From assembly GCA_965237675.1 (NCBI GenBank), contig OZ250150.1, positions 1,664,001 through 1,728,000 of the forward strand: a stretch of DNA of 64,000 bases, given 5' to 3'. Shown here in pieces: positions 1 through 48,143 of the stretch (the stretch's first letter is position 1; every line of letters begins with the position of its first letter). Made by a program: the position numbers and the translations under genes. The DNA comes from Candidatus Latescibacterota bacterium (GTDB lineage: Bacteria; Latescibacterota; UBA2968; GCA-2709665). Below the pieces are notes generated by a model, which did not search any database, was not told where the DNA came from, and saw only the letters and a program-made list of their open reading frames with translations.

Positions 1-1237
1 GGTTGCTCACGGCGTCGCCGCCGGCGTATCCTTCCAGACTCCGGTTTTCGTCCGCATATTGCAGCAACGAATCCACGGACAGACCATCGGGATTGTAGAT
101 TCCGGTGGTCACATCGCTCACGCCCACCACCCTGACACCGCAGGCTTCCAGGAATCGCGCCGCATTGCTGCCCACGTTTCCGAACCCCTGGACAATGGCG
201 GTTGCGCCGCTCAAGTCCATCCCGATATGTTTGGCCGCCTCCTCCACCAGATACACCAGCCCCCGTCCCGTCGCCTCACGGCGTCCTTCGGAGCCGCCCA
301 GCACCACCGGCTTCCCTGTGACGACCGCAGGAACGGTATGTCCCATCTGGTGGCTGTAGGTGTCCATCATCCAGGCCATTACGTGTTCGTCGGTGCCCAT
401 ATCCGGCGCGGGGATATCTTTTTGCGGTCCGATAACGTCGATGATCTCCGAGGTATACCGGCGCGTGAGGCGCTGCAGTTCGGGGCGTGAGAGTACGGTC
501 GGATCGATCCGTACTCCGCCCTTGGCGCCGCCAAACGGCAGGTTCATCAGAGCGCACTTCCACGTCATCCACATGGCCAGGGCGGTTACCTCGCCCAGGT
601 TCACGTCCTGATGATAGCGCACGCCGCCCTTGGTGGGGCCCATTGTCAACAGATGCTGAATCCGATAACCCGAGACCGTTTCCACCTGATCGTGTTCATC
701 CCGCCGGAACGGAAAGGTGACCACGTGGGTGCGCTGAGGAAACAACAGCCGCTGCCGGATGTTGTCGTCCAGTTCCATCAGGTGGGCGGCCTTCAGAAAC
801 TGCTGCTGCGCCAGCCGGAACATCGGCGACTCCCATTCGGCGTGCAGCGCCCGGCTGCGTTCAACGGCGTATCGGATCGACCTCACCAGCACCGTGCTGT
901 TCAACTTCGATTTCACGAGATAATCCTGCGCGCCCGCCTGAACGGCACGAGCCGCCAGTTTTATGTCCTTCAGGCTGGACAGGATCACAACCGTCAGGTC
1001 CGGATACGCGGCGCGGACCCGGAAATAGGTGTCCAGATCCTCGCTGTCGGGCAGCACCAGGTCCAGCAGCAGCAACTCGTATCCGTCCGCCGCAAGCCGG
1101 TTCAGCCCGGCCGCGAGCGTATTCGCCGCATCCACCTCGAATACCGGACCGTGTGATTCGGAGAGCAGTTCTCGAATCAAGCGCGTGTGCAGGGGATTGT
1201 CTTCAATCAACAACGTCTTTAGGTTCGTTCCAGGCAT
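1..1237 (-). CDS. gdhA: Receiver (REC) domain fused to Glu/Leu/Phe/Val (glutamate) dehydrogenase; 3' end runs off the window
   Basis: Manual translation from ATG 1237 (not in ORF track): MPGTNLKTLLIEDN...LLLLDLVLPD...VILSS...AGAQDYLVK (REC), then in frame GPTKGGVRYH, MTWKCA, PFGGAKGG, DIPAPDMGT, TGKP..GGS.GRREATGRG, VQGFGNVG (GDH). Confidence 0.92.
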   Translation of the reverse strand, partial: MPGTNLKTLLIEDNPLHTRLIRELLSESHGPVFEVDAANTLAAGLNRLAADGYELLLLDLVLPDSEDLDTYFRVRAAYPDLTVVILSSLKDIKLAARAVQAGAQDYLVKSKLNSTVLVRSIRYAVERSRALHAEWESPMFRLAQQQFLKAAHLMELDDNIRQRLLFPQRTHVVTFPFRRDEHDQVETVSGYRIQHLLTMGPTKGGVRYHQDVNLGEVTALAMWMTWKCALMNLPFGGAKGGVRIDPTVLSRPELQRLTRRYTSEIIDVIGPQKDIPAPDMGTDEHVMAWMMDTYSHQMGHTVPAVVTGKPVVLGGSEGRREATGRGLVYLVEEAAKHIGMDLSGATAIVQGFGNVGSNAARFLEACGVRVVGVSDVTTGIYNPDGLSVDSLLQYADENRSLEGYAGGDAVSN

Positions 1238-1477
1238 GGTTCCATTGCCCACGCAATTTCAGGTGCGTTTAAGGTACGACCGCGGTACATCGAATATTTA
1301 GCCCTATTGCCGATTCCAGTCAAGTCCAAAGCGCCGCATGAGACGCATTTATGCAATTCGACCTGGTATTTCCTGTGGAAACAGGTAGGGATTCTCCGAT
1401 GCCCCGCCCGTTTTTCGTCACGAAACCTATCCTGAGGATTTAGACGAATAGATCCATCTCCGGTTGCACGTTATCCG

Positions 1478-7460: not shown

Positions 7461-7687
7461 TGCACACCTCCCGGTGTTCTGCTCCGGAAATATGTCACCA
7501 TTCTTCCGCCTGTCTGTGTGCAGGTCTTCCGCACAGGCAGGCCGGTTCATACCGTCTCCCTGCGTTGCTTGCGCTGAGCTTGTCGAAGTGCCTTCACTCG
7601 CCGACCTTGGGCAGGTCGCAGGTGCCTTGCGAGCCGGGCGACTCGTCGGCCGAATTTCGGCAATCTATTCCCGGGACAGAACAATAG

Positions 7688-10131: not shown

Positions 10132-10880
10132 CGGCCTTTTTTTCGCTCCATGAAAGCCGCCACGTTCGCGCGGGCCGCGTCGGTACCGAAACAAGCCTCG
10201 AACGCCTCCGAGGCGGCGGCATCCCACCTGGCGTCGCGAAGCGTGGATATCCGGTTCAACAGGGCCTTGGTCCGGCTCAGTGCCTCCGTCGGAAACGACG
10301 CGAGACGCAGCGCAAATGTCCTGACCCGATCCCTCAACGCGTCGTCCGCAACGCAGTCGTGCACCAGGCCGAGCCCCTTCGCCTCGCTGCCCGTCACGGT
10401 TTCGCACCCCATGGCGATCCATCTTGCGGCCGATCCGCCAACGACGTCGACCAGCCGTCCCATCCCCCACGGCGGCGTCCATCCGAGTTTCACTTCCGGC
10501 ATCCCAAGCCGCGCCGATACCGATGCGATCCGGAAGTCATGATATAGCGCCATTCCCACGCCGCCGCCGAGCACGTAACCGTGCAACATGGCGACAGTCG
10601 GCTGCGGCATCGCGTCTATGAGGGCGAATGCATTCTCATGTTCCCGTTCCACGGCCGCGGCCTCCGCGGGAGACAACGCCGCCAGATCCGTCAGATCGCT
10701 CCCCGCACAGAACGCCCGACCCGCGCCTTCGGTGACCACGACCCGCACGTCCTCCCGTTCGCGTATCCCTTCCAGGTGCGCGGCGAGTGCCCGCACACTT
10801 CCCAGATCCATCGCGTTCAACACCTCCGGCCGGTTCAGCGTCAGCCATGCGATCCCGTCTTCAACCGTGAGACCGATCAT
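10128..10880 (-). CDS. Enoyl-CoA hydratase/isomerase family protein
   Basis: LTLNRPEVLNA, AFCAGSDL, GYVLGGG, GMPEVKLG. Confidence 0.92.
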   Translation of the reverse strand: MIGLTVEDGIAWLTLNRPEVLNAMDLGSVRALAAHLEGIREREDVRVVVTEGAGRAFCAGSDLTDLAALSPAEAAAVEREHENAFALIDAMPQPTVAMLHGYVLGGGVGMALYHDFRIASVSARLGMPEVKLGWTPPWGMGRLVDVVGGSAARWIAMGCETVTGSEAKGLGLVHDCVADDALRDRVRTFALRLASFPTEALSRTKALLNRISTLRDARWDAAASEAFEACFGTDAARANVAAFMERKKGR

Positions 10881-11380
10881 TATTTCGACCTGTGTTTTTT
10901 CGGATAGTCGTACGATACCATCCGACCGATACCGGCCGATACGTGAGCCCAGGAGTCAACCGCCAGATCCACGCAGCAGACGGCGCAGGTTGGCATATGG
11001 AGCGGCGGGTCGGAAGTGAGATAGCCGGCCAACGCGGTGAAACCCGGATTGTGTCCCACCAGGATGACCTCTTCGCAAACGTCGGGAATTTCCTCCACCA
11101 CGGCGTTGAGATCCTGCAGACTCGCCTCGTAAATCGCCATTTCCTCGGCGATTTTTCCGACCGGGTATCCCACTGCCTTCGCAAGCGCGCGGGCCGTCTG
11201 CGACGCACGTCTGGCCGGGCTGGAGATGACCATGTCGGGTTTCGCCCCGTCTTTTTTCAGACGCGTACCCATAAACGGCGCGTCCCGCTTGCCACGTTTG
11301 TTCAACGGGCGCTCGAAGTCCCCCAGCCCCGGATCGCTCCAACTCGATTTTGCATGTCGAATCACATAAAGCCGTTTCAT
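10880..11380 (-). CDS. sixA: SixA-type histidine phosphatase
   Basis: IRHAKSSW, DFERPLNKRG, SSPARRA, LVGHNPG, MPTCA. Confidence 0.88.
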   Translation of the reverse strand: MKRLYVIRHAKSSWSDPGLGDFERPLNKRGKRDAPFMGTRLKKDGAKPDMVISSPARRASQTARALAKAVGYPVGKIAEEMAIYEASLQDLNAVVEEIPDVCEEVILVGHNPGFTALAGYLTSDPPLHMPTCAVCCVDLAVDSWAHVSAGIGRMVSYDYPKKHRSK

Positions 11381-11430
11381 ACAGTTGCGCCCCCAATCGT
11401 GTCGATGAGAGCCCGCCGCGTTTACCCGTT

Positions 11431-12063
11431 TTATACCCTTCTTACCCGGCACACCGCCCGGGAACCGGCGTCACAGTACCAGAACGCCCCCTCCCACATC
11501 GTCATCCCGTGCGGTTCAGGGTAGTCTTCGGGAATCTCGATCTTTTCGCGGATAGCTCCGTCCGCCGCGTTCAACCGGTAAATTGCACGGTGGTTGGTTT
11601 CGACACACCAGAGATCCCTGCCCTCCCAGGCAATACCGTGCGGCCGTTCCCCGGGAGAGGGAAAAGAATGTACCACTTTGAAACCGCTCTGCAGATCCAC
11701 CTGATATATCGTCGCCGATGGCGGCACGGCCATCCACAGGTGGCTGTCACGGATCTCAAGGCCGTGAGCCCCGGTGACATCCGCGCCAGGGGTATCGAAC
11801 CGTTCCAGCGTTTCACCCGTCTGCCGGTCCACACACAGAATTTCCCGGTTATATGTGGACGCCAGCCACAGCGCCGGCCCCGTATCCGTAATCCCGCTCC
11901 CGCGATCCGACGCCGTATCCATTGTCTTTAATACTTCACCCGAGAAGGAAACCAGATCCGCCTGGTTCGTTTTCTGATCCAGAATCCAGATTCCGTCGGG
12001 CGTTGCCTGCATGCCATTCGGCTGCGGCCCGGGCGCGTAAAATTCGTGTGTAATTTCCACCAT
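11431..12063 (-). CDS. Small beta-propeller protein (NHL/glutaminyl-cyclase-like repeats)
   Basis: Repeated P(N/H)G-x-x-W..G..(L/F)W units (PNGMQAT, AHGLEIRD, PHGIAWEG, PHGMTMWEG). Confidence 0.65.
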   Translation of the reverse strand: MVEITHEFYAPGPQPNGMQATPDGIWILDQKTNQADLVSFSGEVLKTMDTASDRGSGITDTGPALWLASTYNREILCVDRQTGETLERFDTPGADVTGAHGLEIRDSHLWMAVPPSATIYQVDLQSGFKVVHSFPSPGERPHGIAWEGRDLWCVETNHRAIYRLNAADGAIREKIEIPEDYPEPHGMTMWEGAFWYCDAGSRAVCRVRRV

Positions 12064-12251
12064 GCGATTGTTCCCGATCACCCGTTTTCCAGTTTAAGAG
12101 GTCCTGTCCAGTCCGATTTCCCAGGCGCCCCGAGGGCTTCGCAGCGCGAGAAGTGTGAGAACGTCCTTAACCTACCCTTCGACCATTGCCCCAACGGCCA
12201 CGGCGACTGAATCGCCAGCGGAGAGGAGGACAGCATCCGCGACCTCTTCGG

Positions 12252-12911
12252 CTAGAGTTGGAGCCGGCTACGCTCCAATGCCCGTTTCACTAACTCAGTA
12301 GGAACAGACGCCTGCGAAGTCCAGAATCGGCTTGGGTGGGTCAGTTGCACCACCTGCAACCCATACCCATTTTTAAAAGTGAGGCTCTCATATCCGCGTC
12401 TGTTTTTTTCTGTAAAGGAGTCTATTGGCCCAGAATCGGCCTTCAAGAAATTTCGAACGAGGTTCCCGCATTTCCGCTTTCCCAAGCAGACAACCACCTT
12501 AACTCCCAATTTTCCTATGACTTCCTCGTGGAATGGCCAACACTTTCTTGCAAGACGCCTCATCGCTAGCGTTTGTTCGCTTTGCGATCTCAAGAAGACC
12601 AGGTTGCTTGCTGGCACTTCGCAAGGATCAAGTTCAAGATAATCGAAGAAATGGTGGCGTAGTCTCTTGTGGAAATCGTCCGCGCCTTCCCGATATCTTG
12701 ACCAATTCTCCATTTCCGGGCGGTTGAGGATACTCTCTACGTTGTCCCCGACTCGATCTTTTGCGTCTGCAGGGTCTCCCCCGGAATTTATGCCAAGCAA
12801 GTACAAATCTCTTGGCGACTCAAAGGCCTTCCTGCCGGAGTAAAACACTCGGCCTGGTTTCTCTATTAGCGATTCGGGCACCAGCGCTGCGAACTCTTCA
12901 ATTGTCGCCAT
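12252..12911 (-). CDS. Uracil-DNA glycosylase-like superfamily protein
   Basis: LLGINSGG, SNLVF.RS, VVVCLGK, LTHPSR; visibly more AT-rich than its neighbours. Confidence 0.7.
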   Translation of the reverse strand: MATIEEFAALVPESLIEKPGRVFYSGRKAFESPRDLYLLGINSGGDPADAKDRVGDNVESILNRPEMENWSRYREGADDFHKRLRHHFFDYLELDPCEVPASNLVFLRSQSEQTLAMRRLARKCWPFHEEVIGKLGVKVVVCLGKRKCGNLVRNFLKADSGPIDSFTEKNRRGYESLTFKNGYGLQVVQLTHPSRFWTSQASVPTELVKRALERSRLQL

Positions 12912-13022
12912 ACACCTTCCCCATCCTGATTAATTCATGATTTGTTAGCTGCTTTGTTCGCGAATCCATCATCTCCTCGCCCGCACAATGGCGTGTAGAA
13001 CCGTTGAGGAAGTAAATATGAA

Positions 13023-13737
13023 GGTGGGGTAGACATTCCTGTCTGCCCTTCTCATCGTTCTTCTGCCGGAATGCACACACAAGAATGGCTTGCGCCGCCT
13101 TTATAGAGCCAATACTCGTGGTCGCGCAGTCCGGATTTTGTGGGGTTTTCCGCGATGTAGCGGACGAATCGCCAATACTGCTTATCGCTGCGCACAATGT
13201 GATCATAGGACTCGCCAAGCCAGAAAGTACCGGTGACGCCCATGAGTTTGTTGATTTCGCGGGCAGATGCACCTTTAATGCCCTGCAAAATCCGCGAAAG
13301 CTCATGGCCTCCGAGCGGCTCCGTAAGGAGGTGAACATGTGTGGGCATGATGACGGCTGCGTGAAGCCGGTGTCTCTCGCCGTCGAACCGCAAAGGACAG
13401 TTCTTGACAGCTTCACGGGCATCGACGCGCGCCAGGGCACGAGAACCCATGCCGGCATCGAGCCAGGATTCGATCTTTTCATCGAAACGTCTGTTGTTTT
13501 CTTTCCAATCGGCGTCAGTCCACGGTTCAGGGTGGCGCTTGAGCCACAGCTTACGCGCTTCCTGAAAGGCGCGGCGTTTGTCCGGGGGGATCGCGTCGGC
13601 GATGCGAAAGGTGATCCAATAGATAGCGCCGTCCTTTTGCCAGTGGGGGAGACGGCGGCGCGTCGCGGTGTGTCCAGACACAGGATTCGGAGGTTCCGGT
13701 TTGATGTATGTGAGCAGACAAGAATGTCCGCTCCACC
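13023..13737. repeat. Inverted GTGG-type REP hairpins flanking the RAYT
   Basis: 13023-13048 GGTGGGGTAGACATTCCTGTCTGCCC; 13712-13737 reverse complement GGTGGAGCGGACATTCTTGTCTGCTC; degenerate third copy at about 13072-13100. Confidence 0.75.
13052..13681 (-). mobile_element. REP-associated tyrosine transposase (RAYT, Y1 HUH)
   Basis: RRRLPHW...YWITFR, VIMPTHVHLL (HUH), FW..ESYDHIVR, YIAENP; bracketed by inverted REP hairpins. Confidence 0.88.
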
Positions 13738-47892: not shown

Positions 47893-47951
47893 GGGATCTC
47901 AACAAATAGTGTCCCGTCCCAGAAATATGTTACCATTCATCCGCCGATTCA

Positions 47952-48010
47952 TCCCGTCTCGCTACGCCCGTTCTGGTCCCGTCTCGCTACGCCCGTTCTG
48001 GTCCCGTCTC
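47952..48010. repeat. 25-bp tandem duplication
   Basis: TCCCGTCTCGCTACGCCCGTTCTGG x2 plus a partial third copy. Confidence 0.85.
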
Positions 48011-48143
48011 TTCACGGCGCTGATGTCAACTGATTGGGTTTTTGGTTCAAGCTGACGGCTGAGAGCTGATAGCTGTTTTTGCTGCTTCTGATCGGCCGAA
48101 TTTAGCCAATCTATTTCAGGGACAGAACACTAGGGGGCGCGAC

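Follow-up and report, generated by a model that had tools for sequence, protein, structure and literature searches.

Introduction

Can a glutamate dehydrogenase (GDH) be placed directly under the control of a two-component phosphorelay by fusion to the receiver domain (REC) of a response regulator? This question is raised by a gene at the edge of a 64,000-nucleotide stretch of the genome of a Candidatus Latescibacterota bacterium (contig OZ250150.1, here C1, positions 1664001-1728000; hereafter, the window). In this gene, REC-GDH, a receiver and a GDH are encoded in one reading frame. Glutamate dehydrogenase stands where carbon and nitrogen metabolism meet and, to our knowledge, the controls of bacterial GDHs known so far are (i) transcriptional; (ii) allosteric; or (iii) exerted through separate partner proteins.

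In general terms, the answer reached here is that REC-GDH is probably the terminal response regulator of a His-Asp-His-Asp relay starting at a hybrid histidine kinase encoded beside it, and that phosphorylation of Asp64 (D64) in its receiver would alter the activity or the assembly of the GDH. A sequence-only reading of the window had already suggested that a phosphorelay acts on this enzyme, and that suggestion gains support from the intact receiver residues, the adjacent kinase with its Hpt domain and the pairing of both genes across phyla. The architecture, the residues, the synteny and the orthology were computed here; phosphotransfer, its effect on the enzyme and the sign of this effect are what we infer from them.

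A Genuine Fusion of a Receiver and a Glutamate Dehydrogenase

Within the window, the gene appears as a minus-strand open reading frame (ORF) at positions 2..1252 (417 amino acids) which is open at the first base of the window. It is a single uninterrupted frame from REC to GDH, as previously described, and it is missing from the track of closed ORFs because it runs off the window edge. The 12 kb beyond the window start were taken as locus L002 (window position = L002 position - 12000), in which the full frame occupies 11588..13252 (-) and encodes 554 amino acids from the first GTG or 549 from an ATG at window 1235-1237. Since its relatives are 549-552 amino acids long, this ATG is the likely start, in agreement with the position (1237) at which the sequence-only reading had ended the gene. 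Residues are numbered throughout on the 554-amino acid (GTG) version.

Three Pfam domains follow one another in REC-GDH, in the order REC, ELFV_dehydrog_N and ELFV_dehydrog, all of them far over the Pfam cut-offs (Table 1). For the whole protein, the matches are as follows: (i) PF00072, E 3.2e-15, 56.7 bits (cut-off 30.2); (ii) PF02812, E 1.1e-52, 177.5 bits (cut-off 25.3); and (iii) PF00208, residues 319-551, E 1.2e-79, 267.9 bits (cut-off 23.4). For the part encoded at window 2-1237, Response_reg reaches 57.3 bits (cut-off 30.2), ELFV_dehydrog_N 178.3 bits and ELFV_dehydrog 95.3 bits, the latter match breaking off after 93 of the 241 profile positions, where the window ends. The equivalog cut-offs of the NCBIfam GDH models GdhB_Halo (NF041398, 498.3 against 620) and GdhA_Arch (NF040817, 484.4 against 750) were missed.

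It is confirmed that the fusion is a genuine gene. The REC/GDH junction (near L002 12847) is bridged by contigs of two sequencing runs from different studies: one from run X1, which may be the source sample of this genome, matches L002 12554-13400 with 0 differences (record 8), and one from run X3 matches L002 12552-13360 with 28 differences (record 24). Furthermore, a genome scan found the full-length, stop-free fused frame in 23 of the 168 genomes of the phylum, namely this genome, all 14 of its other congeners (89-92% identity), three further members of its family (75-77%) and five genomes from a second family of the class (58-69%). Full-length fused frames are also present in 17 genomes of other species. 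These were found by a pattern scan with one genome per species, which gave at least 597 matching stretches; the best 80 were used, and the 17 full-length fusions among them make up, together with this genome, the 18 loci compared below.

A protein search with residues 1-200 retrieved 1537 proteins at E <= 1e-3. The count of full architectures rests on the 120 listed among these matches: REC and the GDH N-domain are found in 120/120 and all three domains in 119/120, the exception being a 330-amino acid fragment. The sources of the listed relatives include Gimesia, Pontibacterium, Amphritea, Nitrococcus, Zobellella, Leisingera, Longimicrobiaceae and Latescibacteria. In the ESM Atlas, REC-GDH belongs to a 114-member cluster with REC on 88% of its members. 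One database member (P0057) has about 100 wholly divergent residues in the NAD domain (alignment columns 434-530), after which the consensus is resumed, a pattern suggestive of a double frameshift in the database entry. Contigs about 91% alike were found in one metatranscriptome run, covering only L002 12133-12583 and the repeat described below between REC-GDH and the kinase gene, and they are no demonstration that this REC-GDH is transcribed.

Residues of the Receiver and of the Enzyme

All the motifs named in the sequence-only reading are found in the translation, that is, IEDN, LLLLDLVLPD, ILSS and DYLVK in the receiver, and TKGG, TWKC, GGAKGG and GFGNVG in the GDH. Across 16 diverse aligned members, the receiver always keeps E17, D18, D64 and K114, with Ser or Thr at position 92 and Tyr or Phe at position 111. 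The present receiver contains the acidic pair E17-D18, the predicted phospho-acceptor D64, S92, the aromatic switch residue Y111 and K114, which make up the complete set for a receiver that can be phosphorylated; the roles of these residues are presumably those of their counterparts in CheY. The complete set occurs in 15 of the 18 genomic loci, and D64 in all 18. The receivers of L015, L016 and L017 (Pirellulales/Planctomycetota) are degenerate, with D18 replaced by Gly or Ser and T92 by Ile (Pfam 36-41 bits), and these three loci may represent a pseudo-receiver branch of the family.

The output domain is predicted to be a hexamer-type GDH. The 416-amino acid GDH of Thermotoga maritima (1b26, E 7.7e-139) is matched from residue 3 to residue 416 by residues 141-554, and the top PDB matches are all hexameric glutamate dehydrogenases. 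Among the 60 PDB matches shown, 56 are glutamate dehydrogenases (E 1e-139 to 1e-37), phenylalanine dehydrogenases appear first at about E 1e-17, and none of the solved chains combines a GDH with a receiver. The residues K208, K232, K244, D284 and G356-x-G358-x-x-G361 are invariant in the 16 diverse members. We take Lys244, in GGAKGG, to be the catalytic lysine of the family, as in the GDH of Clostridium symbiosum, from which the roles of the other conserved GDH residues (the substrate lysines and the GxGxxG of the dinucleotide fold) are likewise assumed.

At the junction, the GDH begins where the last receiver helix ends, with helices 119-141 and 143-158 in an AlphaFold2 (AF2) model and no separate linker. 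The receiver part of this model has a predicted local distance difference test score (pLDDT) of 80-90 and the (beta-alpha)5 pattern. A near-invariant motif, EW(D/E)SPMFRLAQQQFLKAA, lies at the junction; the unfused relatives start with the same motif and, therefore, REC was grafted directly onto the native N-terminus of the GDH. A prediction of REC self-association (two copies, residues 1-160), run without controls, gave 0.00 against a mark of 0.42 and counts neither way.

The Neighboring Hybrid Kinase

According to the sequence-only reading, no cognate kinase lies in the window. This is literally true, but misleading, since inspection of the adjoining region reveals a HisKA-HATPase-REC-REC-Hpt kinase which begins 175 nucleotides past the REC-GDH stop codon. 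Its Pfam content is PAS_3, HisKA, HATPase_c, two receivers and Hpt, with scores over the cut-offs for HisKA (79.8 bits), HATPase_c (98.7 bits), the two receivers (164.6 bits) and Hpt (50.9 bits). The translation contains a SHEIRTP H-box, an Asp in each of the two receivers and, in Hpt, the motif HTLKGSA. Of the receivers, the second is canonical throughout and the first has D-N for the acidic pair. Six hydropathy windows, two of them overlapping, exceed the threshold in the first 283 residues, which corresponds to about 5-6 membrane helices. The orthologue from L003, a locus of the same genus, aligns from L002 11412 (ATG, MNTDAD...), which is likely to be the true start of the kinase.

About 164 of the 175 nucleotides between both genes belong to an interspersed repeat of ~164-167 nucleotides with inverted ends. 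A BLAST search of this genome with the 167-nucleotide stretch gives 159 matches, of which 42 measure at least 120 nucleotides. Read depth over L002 11405-11647 is ~30-100 times as high as in the flanking sequence, and many unrelated loose ends occur there. The repeat is a miniature inverted-repeat transposable element (MITE)-like element that was inserted after the stop codon of REC-GDH, ahead of the kinase gene. In L003, 11 nucleotides separate both genes, and in a related strain's contig that does not carry the repeat (run X4, record 25) L002 11423 is joined directly to 11588; hence, the ancestral arrangement was a tight tandem pair. A scan for promoters and terminators between REC-GDH and the kinase gave no site above chance.

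Conservation of the Gene Pair

Around the 17 other fused loci, 147 ORFs were predicted and the 55 nearest were scanned with Pfam. Regarding the kinase, the following groups can be differentiated among the 18 loci: (i) ten loci in which a complete hybrid kinase (HisKA-HATPase-REC x2) adjoins REC-GDH, that is, the locus studied here, L003, L004, L006, L008, L009 (Halomonas), L011 (Enhygromyxa), L014 (Microbulbifer), L018 (Sinorhizobium) and L022 (Lujinxingia); (ii) one locus, L013, in which the contig breaks off within an ORF with a CHASE domain; (iii) two loci, L005 and L007, in which the contig ends right after REC-GDH, so that they are not judgeable; and (iv) five loci, L010, L012, L015, L016 and L017, which have no adjacent kinase and all belong to Planctomycetota. 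Hpt was detected in nine of the ten complete kinases (not in that of L014). The kinase-paired loci come from Gemmatimonadota, Pseudomonadota, Myxococcota and Planctomycetota (in the latter case, one Pirellulales genome).

For all nine neighbor kinases of the other loci, the top match in this genome is the kinase adjacent to REC-GDH. The L003 kinase is 84% identical over its full length, and the other eight show 41-50% identity over ~550-740 amino acids of the core (433-595 bits); the second-ranking kinase of this genome scored 97-118 bits for the eight queries with one above the 1e-20 threshold, and there was none for L014. By these similarities, the kinases that flank REC-GDH across phyla belong to one subfamily. 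Its sensor parts vary: multiple membrane helices and PAS here, GAF-PAS in Halomonas, CHASE in Microbulbifer and Lujinxingia, and none in L008. Regarding the planctomycetes with no adjacent kinase, four of the five genomes have from one to several unlinked full-core homologues (40-50% identity), and the fifth, a fragmentary genome, gave a partial kinase match only.

In the metagenome-assembled genome of Pirellulales that contains L008 (L008 570-11360), REC-GDH closes a chemosensory-like cluster which includes a CheA-like kinase, CheB and then the hybrid kinase. This kinase has four receiver stretches and Hpt, and a convergent REC-PAS-SpoIIE phosphatase gene is located after REC-GDH.

Evolution of the Fusion

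A maximum-likelihood tree of the GDH portions was built from 81 rows, with none dropped (IQ-TREE quick search, LG+G4). Since the choice of loci relied on motifs characteristic of this GDH subfamily and was capped at 80, the tree samples only its neighborhood. The 18 fused genes and four unfused ones (L019, L020, L021 and L026) form one clade (SH-aLRT 99), within which the four unfused genes make up a single nested sub-clade (support 96). The sister group of the fused clade corresponds to unfused GDHs from Myxococcota. The fused/unfused label changes twice on the tree, and the starred branches alone would allow one change; in the simplest history, the fusion thus arose once and REC was lost once.

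In the four unfused genes, a short shared leader replaces REC, with the sequence (V/I)RPFDQPL-P-AEWDSPMF in three of them, which is consistent with a single receiver loss. The long open frames upstream of the unfused GDHs were considered as extra N-terminal domains and rejected, as they contain no Pfam domain; what lies upstream in L029 and L033 is a lipoate-ligase gene in its own right, joined to the frame by reading across a stop. Among the 227 columns conserved in the fused genes, five are altered in at least three of the four REC-loss genes (K154, F182, T252, E289 and N497); these positions are a lead to where REC might dock.

Branching within the fused clade departs from the phylogeny of the organisms (e.g., Halomonas and Sinorhizobium are sisters at 99) and, therefore, points to horizontal spread of REC-GDH and, given the conserved pairing, of both genes together. 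We lean towards the idea that the kinase, with its exchangeable sensors, and REC-GDH constitute a horizontally mobile two-gene cassette which wires arbitrary environmental signals to the activity of GDH in at least four phyla.

Metabolic Setting

REC-GDH is the only GDH found in this genome, beside a full glutamine synthetase-glutamate synthase (GS-GOGAT) route. The single PF00208 match of the genome is REC-GDH itself, and no large Bac_GDH-type NAD-GDH was found in it (completeness 99.93%). The GS-GOGAT route is represented by a 1547-amino acid GOGAT large subunit, two further Glu_synthase matches and three glutamine synthetase loci. In the 15 genomes of the genus, the fusion is likewise the single GDH match at E <= 1e-30 (15/15). 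REC-GDH would then serve either as a catabolic exit from glutamate or as a route for high-ammonium assimilation, and its gating would avoid a futile cycle with GS-GOGAT.

Proposed Mechanism and Alternatives

In the proposed mechanism, the hybrid kinase (~5-6 membrane helices, PAS, HisKA, HATPase, two receivers and Hpt) would sense a signal and relay phosphate from His to Asp and then to the His of Hpt, which would in turn phosphorylate Asp64 of REC-GDH. The resulting change at the alpha4-beta5-alpha5 face of REC would be transmitted rigidly to GDH domain I, because helix alpha-5 of REC continues into the N-terminal helix of the GDH with no linker, and would alter either catalysis or the hexamer state. 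In this way, the relay would gate post-translationally the step between glutamate and 2-oxoglutarate plus ammonium.

Some points weigh against this proposal. No paper characterising or testing any member of the receiver-GDH fusion was found in the full-text literature searched (subscription journals lie outside this scope), in line with the earlier statement that no characterised example is known. The REC-GDH architecture itself is already catalogued, with hundreds of entries in databases, and in the P2CS paper EC 1.4.1.3 glutamate dehydrogenase is included among the "probable" enzymes on two-component proteins (P2CS, 2009; PMC2716373). Excerpts of two other papers (PMC12918730 and PMC12316311) have no bearing on a receiver-GDH fusion.

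The remaining points are the following: (i) five of the 18 loci, all from Planctomycetota, have no adjacent kinase, and three of them (L015-L017) have a degenerate receiver, so that control in that subclade may be other than by phosphorylation; (ii) judging by homology, the kinase subfamily is not exclusive to REC-GDH, being multi-copy and unlinked in planctomycetes; (iii) the 164-nucleotide repeat separates both genes and, hence, co-transcription is not assured in this genome; (iv) the AF2 model, computed from a 16-row alignment, is weak (mean pLDDT 65.7, predicted template modelling score 0.47, GDH domain I below 50) and, as a model, says nothing reliable on the contacts within REC-GDH; and (v) a fusion-specific linker or coupling motif had to be rejected, because EWD-PMF(R/N)LAQ also opens the unfused relatives.

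Two other explanations for the gene have to be considered. In the first one, signalling runs in reverse: the GDH domain would act as a sensor of metabolites (glutamate, 2-oxoglutarate, NAD(P)H) that tunes the gain or loss of phosphate by the receiver, and REC-GDH would be a metabolically tuned phosphate sink on the relay from the kinase to other regulators. The two internal receivers and the Hpt of the kinase do allow branching and phosphate sinks; the many unlinked kinase copies in planctomycetes indicate that one-to-one wiring is not required; and the L008 gene lies inside a chemosensory-like cluster with several receivers. Nevertheless, all the catalytic residues of the GDH are invariant, and REC-GDH is the sole GDH of the genome and of the genus, so it must function as an enzyme. 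Besides, no DNA-binding or other regulator was found among the scanned neighbors, in a scan not aimed at finding one. Reverse signalling is considered unlikely.

In the second one, the receiver is a phosphorylation-independent structural module (a pseudo-receiver) for assembly, localisation or partner binding, and the kinase serves other regulators. This explanation is more plausible for L015-L017 (3/18), which lack the conserved Thr/Ser, one acidic residue and an adjacent kinase; moreover, the four nested genes with no REC remain intact GDHs. For the family as a whole it is improbable, given that all the residues of the phospho-chemistry are present in 15/18 loci and in 16/16 database members, and that kinases of one subfamily adjoin the gene in several phyla, an arrangement that would hardly be expected if both genes were functionally unrelated. 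Finally, an artefact (assembly chimera or two-gene read-through), in favor of which nothing was found other than a window edge that cuts the frame, is refuted by the uninterrupted frame, the junction-spanning contigs of two studies and the stop-free full-length frames in 23/168 phylum genomes and 17 genomes of other species, and can be given practically no credit.

Other Features of the Locus

The coordinates of REC-GDH, its kinase and the surrounding features are compiled in Table 1. The sequence-only reading had also proposed, as a speculation, a link with a SixA phosphohistidine phosphatase encoded in the window, which is unsupported. The best NCBIfam match of the SixA-like gene is sixA (TIGR00249), at 68.2 bits against a cut-off of 74.5; its Pfam His_Phos_1 match is partial; and it is located amid fatty-acid genes (enoyl-CoA hydratase, AMP-binding enzyme). 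No His_Phos_1 domain was found among the 55 neighbor ORFs scanned at the other loci. There is a second His_Phos_1 gene at this locus, and it too is unlinked to REC-GDH elsewhere. Downstream of the kinase, a gene for a 437-amino acid AAA_21/AAA_15 ATPase (with AbiEii-like matches) is followed by one for a 295-amino acid protein, to which no Pfam family was matched; both genes could be a defence-type pair.

Table 1. Position of REC-GDH, its domains and the neighboring features, in window, contig C1 or L002 numbering.
Feature	Position	Strand	Basis or remark
REC-GDH coding sequence, codons 1-412 of 549	window 1..1237	-	ORF, Pfam, length of relatives
REC-GDH remainder, 137 codons + stop	contig C1 1663588-1664000, outside the window	-	ORF
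Receiver (REC), residues 14-115	window 908..1213	-	Pfam envelope PF00072
Codon of the predicted phospho-acceptor Asp64	window 1061..1063	-	+ strand gtc = GAC coding
Junction, residues 136-171	window 740..847	-	REC helix alpha-5 into GDH N-terminal helix, EWESPMFRLAQQQFLKAA
GDH domain I (ELFV_dehydrog_N), residues 172-301, with TKGG/WKC/GGAKGG lysines	window 350..739	-	PF02812
Codon of Lys244 in GGAKGG	window 521..523	-	+ strand ctt = AAG coding
NAD(P)-binding domain (ELFV_dehydrog), first part, residues 319-417, with GFGNVG	window 1..298	-	PF00208
Hybrid histidine kinase ORF	L002 8140..11511, outside the window	-	ORF; downstream of REC-GDH, same strand
MITE-like repeat	L002 11424-11590 (contig C1 1663424-1663590)		
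Partial copies of the repeat	window 7589-7687, 47907-47966, 48093-48133		
SixA-like gene	window 10880-11452	-	NCBIfam, Pfam
Second His_Phos_1 gene	L002 342-977		
ATPase gene and gene for 295-amino acid protein	L002 4900-7101	-	Downstream of kinase

Relation to Known Systems

Response regulators with an enzymatic output are a known kind, of which CheB (REC-methylesterase), PleD/WspR (REC-GGDEF) and RpfG (REC-HD-GYP) are examples; a GDH output is unusual. Like these regulators, REC-GDH has an N-terminal receiver with the full set of phospho-residues on an enzyme, and a histidine kinase gene beside it. Unlike them, its output is a normally hexameric oxidoreductase of primary metabolism instead of a signalling enzyme. 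With respect to the unfused hexameric GDHs of the ELFV type, such as those of T. maritima (1b26), Thermus GdhA/GdhB (3aoe) and Bacillus subtilis RocG (3k92), REC-GDH shares both Pfam domains and the catalytic residues, with a whole-chain alignment in the case of 1b26, but carries ~135 extra N-terminal residues, which correspond to the receiver.

Control of GDHs by partners is found in (i) GarA/OdhI, an FHA protein under the Ser/Thr kinase PknG; (ii) Thermus GdhA-GdhB, with leucine; and (iii) RocG-GltC. As in these systems, in REC-GDH the signal would act on the GDH protein and not on transcription. They rely, however, on separate proteins, Ser/Thr phosphorylation or small ligands, whereas the module of REC-GDH is fused and would use His-Asp chemistry. 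Concerning the neighbor kinase, it resembles BarA, TorS and ArcB in the order HisKA-HATPase_c-REC-Hpt and in the intact H-box, Asp and Hpt His motifs, and differs from them in its two tandem internal receivers and in a sensor part that varies by lineage; its best NCBIfam matches, BarA (483.9 against 890) and TorS (478.7 against 676.5), are below the equivalog cut-offs.

Significance

If the proposal is true, this would be the first case in which a central enzyme of carbon and nitrogen metabolism is placed under a His-Asp phosphorelay through covalent fusion and without recourse to transcription, and REC-GDH and its kinase would constitute a fast post-translational switch at the junction of both metabolisms. 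The outputs of response regulators, beyond signalling enzymes, would then also take in primary metabolism. The family occurs widely in bacteria from the sea and from soil, including the culturable genera Halomonas, Sinorhizobium, Leisingera, Gimesia and Nitrococcus; in consequence, the idea is directly testable by biochemistry and genetics. The varied sensors found on related kinases suggest that different lineages may couple different signals to the same metabolic valve.

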